Made by a program: the position numbers and the translations under genes. A DNA stretch of 38,810 nt from the sequence record NC_027387.1, one strand, 5' to 3'. Of this stretch, positions 1,255 to 38,810 are shown piece by piece. The notes beneath the pieces are model-generated. The model searched no databases. It was not told the origin of the DNA and was given only the letters and a program-made list of their open reading frames with translations. This DNA is from Escherichia phage CICC 80001. Every line of letters starts with the position of its first letter. Position 1 is the stretch's first letter.

Positions 1255-1267
1255 AGGAGACAATAAA

Positions 1268-1597
1268 ATGCGTAAGTTCTACAACTGGAAGTACAGCATT
1301 ACTTATGCTTATGGACAACCAACGTATGACGTGATTGACAAAGAAGGTAACGACTGGTATCGCCTGATGTGTGAACTTGAAGTTCGCCCTGAGAAGTGGG
1401 TCGTTGGGGTTAACCCCAACGGCTCAGTCTCTTGGTGGTCTGATGGTTCCGTAGATGGTACATATGCGCCGCCTGAAGGTGGCATGGTGATTGTTTGTGA
1501 AGAGTTCCTACCTGATTATGGACAACGCTGGGTGGACTCTGAGGACCGCTGGGAGTTGATTTCAGAAGCGACTAAAGCACCTAAGGAGGGTAGTTAA
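1268..1597 (+). CDS. Hypothetical protein (110 aa) between tail fibre and holin; possible tail-fibre accessory or assembly protein
   Basis: ATG at 1268 preceded by AAGGAG; stop directly abuts holin start (TAAATG at 1595-1600); no counterpart at this position in T7 as I recall it. Confidence 0.6.
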   Translation: MRKFYNWKYSITYAYGQPTYDVIDKEGNDWYRLMCELEVRPEKWVVGVNPNGSVSWWSDGSVDGTYAPPEGGMVIVCEEFLPDYGQRWVDSEDRWELISEATKAPKEGS

Positions 1598-4918: not shown

Positions 4919-4941
4919 TAATTCGACTCACTATAGGGAGA
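4919..4941 (+). promoter_or_regulatory. T7-type promoter (phiOR-equivalent)
   Basis: TAATTCGACTCACTATAGGGAGA. Confidence 0.85.
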
Positions 4942-37200: not shown

Positions 37201-38165
37201 ATGCTGCGCGTCAAGGTATGCTTGGGGACGTTATTAGTGCCACCTTAACAGGTAAGACTACCCGCTGGGAGAAAGAGGGATTCCTTCGCGGTGCCTCCAT
37301 AACTCCTGAGCAGATGGCTGGTATCAAGTCTCTCATCAAGGAACACATGGTCCGTGGTGATGACGGGAAGTTTACCGTTAAGGACAAGCAAGCGTTCTCT
37401 ATGGACCCCCGCGCTATGGACTTATGGCGACTTGCTGACAAGGTAGCTGATGAGGCAATGTTACGTCCGCATAAGGTGTCCTTACAGGATTCCCATGCGT
37501 TCGGAGCATTAGGTAAGATGGTGATGCAGTTTAAGTCTTTCACTATTAAATCCCTCAACTCTAAGTTCGTGAGAACCTTCTACGATGGCTACAAGAACAA
37601 CCGAGCGATTGACGCTGCGCTTACTGGTATCATCTCTATGGGTCTCGCTGGTGGTTACTACGCTATGGCTGCACATGTCAAAGCGTATGGAATGCCTAAG
37701 GAGCAACGTAAAGAATACTTGGAGCGCGCATTGGACCCAACCATGATTGCACACGCTTCGTTGTCTCGTAGTTCTCAATTGGGTGCTCCTTTGGCTATGG
37801 CTGACCTAGTTGGCGGTATCTTAGGGGTCGAGTCCTCCAAGATGGTTCGCTCCACGATTCTACCTAAGGACACCATGAAGGAACGAGACCCAAACAAACC
37901 GTACACCTCTAGAGAGGTAATGGGAGCTATGGGTTCGAACCTTCTGGAGCAGATGCCTTCCGCTGGCTTTGTGGCTAACGTAGGGGCTACCTTAATGAAC
38001 GCTGCTGGTGTGGTTAACTCACCTAACAAAGCAACCGAGCAGGACTTCATGACTGGCTTAATGAACTCGACCAAAGAGTTAGTACCTAACGACCCTCTTA
38101 CTCAACAGCTTGTGTTGAAGATTTATGAGGCGAATGGTGTTAACTTGAAGGAGCGCCGGAAATAA
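34209..38165 (+). CDS. 16: gp16 internal core protein with N-terminal lytic transglycosylase domain
   Basis: 1318 aa, same length as T7 gp16; N-terminal SLT motif ...TESRFQPTAKSKTGPLGMMQF. Confidence 0.97.
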   Translation: MDKYDKNVPSDYDGLFQKAADANGVSYDLLRKVAWTESRFQPTAKSKTGPLGMMQFTKATAKAMGLRVTDGPDDDRLNPELAINAAAKHLAGLVGKFDGDELKAALAYNQGEGRLGNPQLEAYSKGDFASISEEGRNYLRNLLDVAKSPMAGQLETFGGITPKGKGIPADVGLAGIGHSQKVTQELPESTSFDVKGIEQEAPAKPFAKDFWETHGETLDEYNRRSTFFGFKNAAKAELSNSVAGMAFRAGRLDNGFDVFKDTITPTRWNSHIWTPEELEKIRTEVKNPAYINVVTGGSSENLDDLIKLANENFEADSRAAEAGLGAKLSAGVIGAGADPLSYVPMVGVTGKGFKLVNKALVVGAESAALNVASEGLRTSVAGGDADYAGAALGGFVFGAGMSAISDAIAAGLKRSKPEAEFDNEFIGPMMRMEARETARNANSTDLSRMNTDGMKFEGEHNGIPYEDLPTEKGAVVLHDGSVISVSNPINPKTLKEFSEVDPEKAARGIKLAGFTEIGLKTLGSDDADIRRVAIDLVRSPTGMQSGSSGKFGATASDIHERLHSTDQRTYNDLYKAMSDAMKDPEFSTGGAKMSREETRYTIYRRAALAIERPELQSALTPSEKIVMDIIKRHFDTKRQLMENPAIFGNTKAVSIFPESRHKGTYVPHVYDRHAKALMIQRYGAEGLQEGITRSWMNSYVSRPEVKARVDEMLKELHGVKEVTPEMVEKYAMDKAYGISHSDQFTNSSIIEENIEGLAGIENNSFLEARNLFDSDLSITMPDGQQFSVNDLRDFDMFRIMPAYDRRVNGDISIMGSTGKTTKELKDEILALKAKAEGDGKKTGEVHALMDTVKILTGRARRNQDTVWETSMRAINDLGFFAKNAYMGAQNLTEIAGMFATGNVRALGHGIPILRDTLYKSKPVSAKELKELHASLFGKEVDQLIRPKRADIVQRLREAADTGPAVANIVGTLKYSTQELAARSPWTKVLNGTTNYLLDAARQGMLGDVISATLTGKTTRWEKEGFLRGASITPEQMAGIKSLIKEHMVRGDDGKFTVKDKQAFSMDPRAMDLWRLADKVADEAMLRPHKVSLQDSHAFGALGKMVMQFKSFTIKSLNSKFVRTFYDGYKNNRAIDAALTGIISMGLAGGYYAMAAHVKAYGMPKEQRKEYLERALDPTMIAHASLSRSSQLGAPLAMADLVGGILGVESSKMVRSTILPKDTMKERDPNKPYTSREVMGAMGSNLLEQMPSAGFVANVGATLMNAAGVVNSPNKATEQDFMTGLMNSTKELVPNDPLTQQLVLKIYEANGVNLKERRK

Positions 38166-38185
38166 TACGACTCACTATAGGGAGA
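38163..38185 (+). promoter_or_regulatory. T7-type promoter phi17
   Basis: TAATACGACTCACTATAGGGAGA. Confidence 0.9.
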
Positions 38186-38237: not shown

Positions 38238-38810
38238 ATGGCTAACGTAATTAAAACCGTTTTGACTTACCAGTTAGATGGCTCCACTCGTGATTTCAAT
38301 ATCCCGTTTGAGTATCTAGCCCGTAAGTTCGTAGTGGTAACTCTTATTGGTGTAGACCGCCGTGTTCTCACGTTAAATACAGATTATCGCTTTGCTACTC
38401 GTACTACTATCTCACTGACTAAGGCTTGGGGGCCAGCGGATGGCTATACTACCATCGAGTTACGTCGAGTAACCTCCACGACCGACCGCTTGGTTGACTT
38501 TACGGACGGCTCAATCCTCCGTGCGTATGACCTTAACGTTGCTCAGATTCAAACGATGCACGTAGCGGAGGAGGCTCGCGACCTAACTGCGGATACCATC
38601 GGTGTCAACAGTGATGGTCACTTGGATGCCCGTGGTCGTAAGATTGTGAACCTTGCGTTCGCTACCAGTGACTATGATGCTGTCCCTCTGAAACAGATTA
38701 AGGACCGTGAGTCCTCTGTGTGGAATGCTGTTACCAAAGCTGATGAACATGCTGACCGCTCTACTCGTGAAGCTAACCGCTCTCGTGATGAGGCTGACCG
38801 TGCTAAGCGT
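38238..38810 (+). CDS. 17: Tail fibre protein gp17, N-terminal part (3' end runs off the window; 191 complete codons)
   Basis: MANVIKTVLTYQLDGSTRDFNIPFEYLARKFVVVTLIGVDRRVLTLNTDYRFATRTT... matches the T7 gp17 tail-attachment domain, then diverges into EADR/EANR repeats. Confidence 0.95.
   Translation, partial: MANVIKTVLTYQLDGSTRDFNIPFEYLARKFVVVTLIGVDRRVLTLNTDYRFATRTTISLTKAWGPADGYTTIELRRVTSTTDRLVDFTDGSILRAYDLNVAQIQTMHVAEEARDLTADTIGVNSDGHLDARGRKIVNLAFATSDYDAVPLKQIKDRESSVWNAVTKADEHADRSTREANRSRDEADRAKR

Follow-up and report, generated by a model that had tools for sequence, protein, structure and literature searches.

We conclude, from profile searches and a predicted structure, that the small gene between the tail-fibre gene and the holin gene of Escherichia phage CICC 80001 (positions 1268 to 1597) encodes a tail-fibre assembly protein (Tfa) of the class typified by gpU of phage Mu, though a short and divergent one, and its product is probably a Tfa-type helper that acts on the tip of the fibre protein gp17. 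The gene is linked to the last ~62 codons of the fibre gene, and the copy in CICC 80001 differs from those of all close relatives by an in-frame deletion of 57 nt, leaving only the putative fibre-binding N-domain. Positions are those of the window, that is, the whole stretch of 38,810 nucleotides analysed (sequence record NC_027387.1), and all features described lie on its plus strand.

Gene 17 ends with a TAA codon at 1252-1254, which overlaps the Shine-Dalgarno sequence of the ORF (AAGGAG, 1254 to 1259), a layout that recurs in the relatives. The ATG at 1268 lies 8 nt after this element and is separated from the gene 17 stop codon by a 13-nt gap, while the stop codon of the ORF (TAA, 1595-1597) directly adjoins the ATG of the downstream neighbour at 1598. 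This neighbour is gene 17.5, encoding a class II holin (1598 to 1801; PF10746, E 1.2e-35; phrog_920, E 7e-30), and its own Shine-Dalgarno sequence (AAGGAGG, 1583 to 1589) lies within the final ORF codons, those for KEGS; it is conserved in L008 and L011, the loci that encode the closest relatives of the ORF product (88% amino acid identity). The ribosome-binding site, the start codon, and the stop abutting the holin start that an earlier note on this DNA had described were all found at the coordinates it gave, and the peptide it quoted was exact apart from the length, which is 109 residues and not 110. The same note had called the gene unannotated. An exact protein look-up, however, identified the product as AIM41052.1 (YP_009152453.1), annotated without a function as 'hypothetical protein ACQ22_gp02'. 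An in-frame ATG at 1223 was rejected as the start codon, because the relatives all begin with MRKF or MRIF at the position of 1268.

Judged by its conservation, the ORF is a genuine gene and not a chance reading frame. Relatives of its product formed 27 clusters at 90% identity in a search of 5.8 billion proteins, and homologues were found in 63 phage genome records. A search of 1.84 billion proteins gave only 28 representatives at E < 1e-3, and the family is therefore small and well delimited. Over the first 101 codons, dN/dS was 0.30 for the window against L008, 0.15 for the window against Koku, and 0.09 for L008 against Koku. The earlier note had named poor conservation and missing coding signatures as what would speak against the gene; these clusters, records, and dN/dS values are the opposite. 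A 1947-aa match in the representative search (P0046) proved to be spurious, being an Ig-repeat subtilase. Homologues are labelled 'ssDNA-binding protein' in records of T7-like phages of Klebsiella and E. coli (MZ428229, MW600722, MN013074, OM103160, and NC_048164), a name for which no supporting profile match was found in this analysis, and other GenBank records name them 'tail fiber assembly protein' or 'hypothetical'.

When searched alone, the window protein matched PHROG 136 weakly (E 0.0044) over residues 5-77; this profile is named 'tail fiber assembly protein' and was also matched by 21 of the 23 family members scanned singly, with a best E of 7e-9, and the full-length members were collinear with it from position 2 to position 132 of 178. 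With the family alignment as input, AlphaFold2 gave a confident model (pLDDT 88.8, pTM 0.78), which predicts an N-terminal fibre-binding domain with the TfaMu fold in the ORF product; Mu Tfa was the unique fold match in the fold comparison. In BFVD, we obtained a match of 100% identity to the ORF product itself, and the matches beyond the family were phage proteins of 137-197 aa, of which four bear the name tail fiber assembly protein. An hhalign comparison of the family with the single Mu U sequence was weak (E 0.022, probability 2%) and placed the DWY...VVG...P.G..V.V core of the family on Mu U residues 30-84. Neither the ORF nor the family matched any entry of Pfam (including PF02413, Caudo_TAP) or NCBIfam, a PDB sequence-profile search with both gave nothing meaningful, and a Foldseek search of the ORF model against PDB, which the earlier note had proposed as a check, returned no match. 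The note had reported no recognisable Tfa or gp38 motif; a Tfa signal is detected by both profile and fold, and no similarity of sequence or fold to the gp38 adhesin was found in the product. On these grounds, we conclude that the body of ~100 residues is the counterpart of the TfaMu N-domain.

We then consider the fibre itself. The window record is permuted, so that gene 17 starts at 38238 and wraps around the ends to 1254, encoding a fibre of 608 aa; the earlier note therefore saw only the C-terminal 417 codons. The N-terminal 191 codons (38238 to 38810; MANVIKTVLTY...) follow an AAGGAGG, and relatives carry the PF03906 domain (Phage_T7_tail). The gene continues at 1 to 1065 with a coiled-coil shaft and an intermediate domain of the type found in phages FE44, IME390, and Sekstaphage-1 (phrog_4242, E 6e-63). 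Nucleotides 5-1033 of the window are 75-78% identical to these three phages, and the distal fibre (residues 1 to ~350 of the part that begins at the window start) is 68-74% identical to theirs at the amino acid level. The three phages have no ORF, a fibre-holin gap of 47-48 nt, and a longer, different tip, which we take to be the T7 gp17 tip type; the gap of about 60 bp that the earlier note had given for T7 agrees with them in spirit. At about nt 1066, gp17 of the window switches to a different end of 62 residues, SVYWGPS...VRFCALWITFHDGTKRIVASQ, after which the protein stops. This 'Tfa-type' tip module (SVYWGPS...KRIVASQ, 1066 to 1254 with the stop codon) was delimited by profile, tblastn, and alignments. 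No Pfam match to a Peptidase_S74/IMC chaperone domain was found in the C-terminal 398 aa of gp17.

The tip module and the ORF go together. A tblastn search with the last 80 aa of gp17 hit 12 records, and in all 12 a homologue of the ORF lies immediately downstream, which answers the earlier note's question of whether the ORF always accompanies the same fibre tip. The module is common to 11 ORF-bearing fibres of T7-like and T4-like phages, with the motifs ...V(Y/W)(W/L)G..., G.G...G, G(I/V/M)F.R.(L/V)W, NG, and ...(I/V)I.S. A tip HMM built without the window matched gp17 residues 545-608 at E 1e-17, and the three ORF-less fibres were still missed with filters off and a threshold of E 100. MAFFT had aligned VRWRTIW with VRFCALW, as if the module were a truncated T7-type tip, and we rejected this because the HMM misses the FE44-type fibres at that threshold. 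Tip identity and Tfa N-domain identity were correlated over 66 locus pairs that are phylogenetically non-independent (Spearman 0.84), and the nucleotide match to Citrobacter phage YSYH starts at window position 1194, inside the end of gene 17, and spans the ORF. From the tblastn result, the shared module, and the tip HMM, the mobile unit is therefore the last ~62 fibre codons plus the Tfa gene, and the window fibre is, as read from its sequence, a chimera of an FE44-type body and a cassette of the 62-aa Tfa-type tip and the Tfa gene. The earlier note had suggested that the ORF was acquired together with the non-T7 distal fibre; this holds for the last ~62 residues of gp17 but not for the larger non-T7 part, which also occurs in ORF-less phages.

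There is also a likeness between the tip module and the very C-terminal end of protein S, the Mu fibre protein with which TfaMu is paired in 5YVQ. The tip of N30 is 38% identical to Mu S over 68 aa, ending at the last residues of both proteins, and hhalign aligned the tip profile with the last 100 aa of Mu S collinearly to the end (probability 48%, E 2e-4). The window tip alone gave E 1.3 against Mu S, and a PDB-wide search with the tip profile did not retrieve the Mu S chain (5yvq_A), so that we regard this likeness as suggestive only.

The genome around the cassette is that of a T7-like phage, ~92% identical in nucleotides to HZ2R8, ESh6, and T7 over 24 kb. A T7 class III promoter consensus with 0 mismatches lies just upstream of gene 17 (38163 to 38185). 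No promoter match lies between it and the ORF, the next one being at 4919, and no terminator-like site was found between 900 and 1600; gene 17, the ORF, and the holin gene are probably expressed as one late transcript from this promoter. Altogether, ten matches to the T7 promoter consensus occur from 4919 to 38185, five of them perfect and all on the plus strand, with none expected by chance. In all 12 loci inspected, the homologue follows a co-oriented fibre gene at a distance of 8-18 nt, and in the T7-like phages it sits upstream of the holin gene. The T4 gene order is 34-35-36-37-38-t. Two T4-like Erwinia phages, Cronus and IT22, have their homologue after the gene for the distal long tail fibre and before the holin gene, which by this order is the slot of gene 38 (gp38). 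The linkage to a fibre gene holds across two phage families. A distant branch of the family is found in Klebsiella phage VSG32 (L017, 1084-1518), where a homologue of ~144 aa, annotated as 'tail fiber assembly protein U', overlaps the fibre gene end by 13 nt and the fibre tip is divergent and has no terminal ...IxS motif. The Tfa homology of the ORF product, the co-orientation with gene 17, and the linkage to the tip module are shown at the level of sequence comparison and structure prediction.

As mentioned above, the product is probably a helper of the gp17 tip. It would be made late, from the same phage-promoter transcript as gp17. By analogy with Mu and Pam3, its beta-rich N-domain would bind the last ~62 residues of gp17, one copy per chain, and help this end to fold and trimerise. 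Once the tip is complete, the protein may remain bound to it as a cap, like Mu Tfa, or come off, like Pam3 gp25. In the full-length relatives, a C-terminal heptad helix would gather three Tfa copies, in line with the published view that the Tfa N-domain grips the distal end of the fibre and that the conserved C-terminal helices join into a bundle, by which the chaperone and, through it, the fibre are made trimeric (PMC9608196, where this bundle is a proposal). Since the helix is deleted in CICC 80001, its protein is predicted to act, if it is still active, via the fibre-binding domain alone. The earlier note had guessed at a fibre assembly or accessory protein. Tfa homology, fold, and synteny bear this out, and physical binding to the fibre, chaperone activity, and the role of the helix are what we infer from the better known systems.

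The earlier note had missed that the window copy has lost the conserved C-terminal helix of the family. Relatives of the ORF product are 125-136 aa long and end in a conserved helix segment, RTxEDxEADLxxLxAELK (in full, RT(K/x)ED(I/V)EADLxxL(L/M)AELK). In P0001, this segment is predicted by AlphaFold2 to be a helix of residues 107-127, with hydrophobic residues in the 3-4-3-4-3 spacing of heptads (L107, V110, M114, L117, L121, and L124). The conserved C-terminal helical domain of the relatives is thus a single heptad helix, which spans only part of the Tfa C-domain, and it is absent from the window protein. DNA and protein alignments and the helix model place the junction at 1574 to 1578. Exactly 57 nt that all close relatives have are absent here, hence the product length of 109 aa; in L008 and L011, these nucleotides lie between the two copies of a 5-nt direct repeat, AAAGC, a microhomology. 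The deletion is in frame, and the codons for KEGS and the stop remain together with the ribosome-binding site of the holin gene. Among ~80 relatives, the helix is missing in just one, P0044 (106 aa), which is also the sole case among the 28 representatives, and the three other members of the window protein's 90% cluster are all 128 aa long. The deletion may also be a sequencing artefact.

Other peculiarities are found in the window lineage. A three-taxon decomposition of the pairwise values given above yielded a branch dN/dS of ~0.44 for the window against ~0.05 for the sister lineage. Between the window tip and its nearest relative, identity is only 61%, although it is 89% between the Tfa N-domains. 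In the gp17 tip, a Cys codon (TGT, 1198-1200) takes the place of the Arg found in each of the 11 other tips (...F-R-x-L/V-W) and in Mu S. We considered whether this Arg-to-Cys change and a Cys95-to-Arg change in the Tfa protein form a compensating pair and rejected it, because P0002 has Tfa Arg 95 together with the fibre Arg. From the helix loss, the raised branch dN/dS, and the tip Cys, the ORF may therefore be impaired in CICC 80001.

A rival reading is that the ORF is a decaying remnant: once the Tfa-type tip had been joined to a fibre body of the FE44 type, or something else had changed, the chaperone would no longer have been needed. The gene would then be drifting without its oligomerisation helix, its frame preserved chiefly for the sake of the holin ribosome-binding site in its 3' end. 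The unique deletion does take out the most conserved C-terminal element, and the branch dN/dS, the contrast between tip and N-domain identities, the loss of the invariant Arg, and the holin Shine-Dalgarno sequence embedded in the last codons all fit. However, the deletion preserves the frame, both start codon and strong ribosome-binding site are intact, all invariant and near-invariant N-domain residues are kept, dN/dS is still well below 1, and the ORF model folds confidently. Moreover, the fibre has kept a tip of the Tfa-dependent type, and a passage of PMC7598189 (citing Xu et al. 2016) traces the viable isolate CICC 80001 to an industrial culture of E. coli. We consider decay rather improbable. 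It is also conceivable, though doubtful, that the CICC 80001 ORF is a natural minimal Tfa that consists of the N-domain only and is still required for gp17 assembly; the Arg-to-Cys change in the tip and the graft onto the FE44-type body might then be compensatory.

Two further readings concern the function of the family. The product could be primarily a structural component of the tip, an adhesin or a protective cap that contributes to or masks receptor recognition, more like gp38 of T2 and S16 or the Mu Tfa of virions than like a folding factor of passing use; retention at the tip would be a variant compatible with the chaperone role. Mu Tfa remains in virions, and the Tfa proteins of Mu and Ur-lambda have been reported in mature virions and are said to aid receptor recognition (PMC9608196), chaperone 'caps' on receptor-binding proteins are described in a passage of PMC10579305, the N-domain alone is bound to the folded fibre in 5YVQ, and a homologue of the ORF occupies the gp38 slot of the T4-like Cronus. 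On the other hand, the ORF product resembles the gp38 adhesin in neither sequence nor fold, and gp25 of Pam3, another Tfa relative, is absent from virions; we hold this reading to be unlikely, if worth keeping in mind. As for an unrelated cargo gene that merely lies beside the fibre gene, for example one for an ssDNA-binding or host-takeover protein, the 'ssDNA-binding protein' labels of several GenBank records and the lack of a Pfam or NCBIfam match could be cited for it, but those labels have no supporting profile match here. The linkage to fibre genes across two phage families, the 12/12 linkage to the tip module, the PHROG 136 match, and the unique fold match to Mu Tfa leave this alternative, which the earlier note had also offered, with hardly any probability. 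The Tfa-type helper of the gp17 tip is the reading that we prefer.

The Tfa class to which the ORF product is assigned includes Mu U (TfaMu; PDB 5YVQ chain B), lambda Tfa, and P2 gpG and is represented by PHROG 136 and Pfam PF02413. Compared with Mu U, the ORF family is short (~128 against 175 aa) and only 14% identical in sequence, and its host virion is a T7-like podovirus. The family reaches only position ~132 of the 178 positions of the profile, so that it has one C-terminal helix and not the full C-domain. It lies beyond the reach of PF02413, and in the window copy even the one helix is gone. A Mu-like Tfa (Gp60) has been reported downstream of a gp17-type fibre gene in the Teseptimavirus EmilieLinder (Bas103) of the BASEL collection (PMC11990801). 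This protein, which we liken to ours by its description, shares the genus, the gene position, and the proposed role, and a 3:3 complex as in Mu was predicted for it. The sister phage AnnaIndermaur (Bas104) has a homologue that is 63% identical to the window ORF; the proteins of these BASEL phages are full length, whereas the window copy is truncated. In gp25 of the myocyanophage Pam3, an N-terminal beta domain grips the fibre tip and the C-terminal helices form a trimeric bundle, which is the architecture predicted for the full-length relatives of the ORF product; the likeness is one of architecture alone, and Pam3 gp25 has several helices, whereas the window protein has no helical part. The T4 gp38 chaperone and the gp38 adhesins of T2 and S16 occupy the same slot before holin gene t as the Cronus homologue, but the ORF product is much smaller than these adhesins and does not have their glycine-rich motifs. 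The C-terminal intramolecular chaperones, such as those of T5 pb1 and the K1F endosialidase, are another solution to the same folding problem. Such domains occur in other Teseptimavirus fibres, whereas here the helper is encoded by a separate gene.

Because Tfa proteins are a known class and a Mu-like Tfa has already been noted in Teseptimavirus, the ORF adds to a known kind of gene, and the short architecture of an N-domain plus one helix and the helix-less allele of CICC 80001 are modest variations of it. The family is mostly annotated as 'hypothetical' and sometimes wrongly as 'ssDNA-binding protein', and a firm Tfa assignment therefore improves its annotation. For the swapping or engineering of gp17 tips in T7-like phages, it matters that this tip comes as a two-gene cassette of ~62 codons plus a gene for ~128 aa, which travels among podoviruses and T4-like myoviruses alike. 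Scientifically, the value is modest: the truncated allele is a ready natural test of the need for the Tfa C-terminal helix. If the ORF were indeed a minimal Tfa, the conserved helical oligomerisation element would be dispensable, and the picture of the Tfa mechanism would move away from a chaperone that trimerises so as to trimerise the fibre, and closer to monomers that bind independently and act as templates or caps.

Two minor observations were made on records that carry homologues. The 171-kb record of Escherichia phage ST2 (L002, OM982647.1) bears a Kagunavirus label and has a T4-like size, and it contains a T7-like block of an ORF homologue, a class II holin gene, and a small terminase fragment; the record looks mixed or mis-assembled. 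In L005 (4442-4843) and L020 (3974-4399), HNH or Endonuclease VII genes have been inserted near genes 18.5 and 19, shortly after the fibre/Tfa/holin block. The window has no insert at this place, and the inserted genes may mark recombination boundaries close to the cassette.
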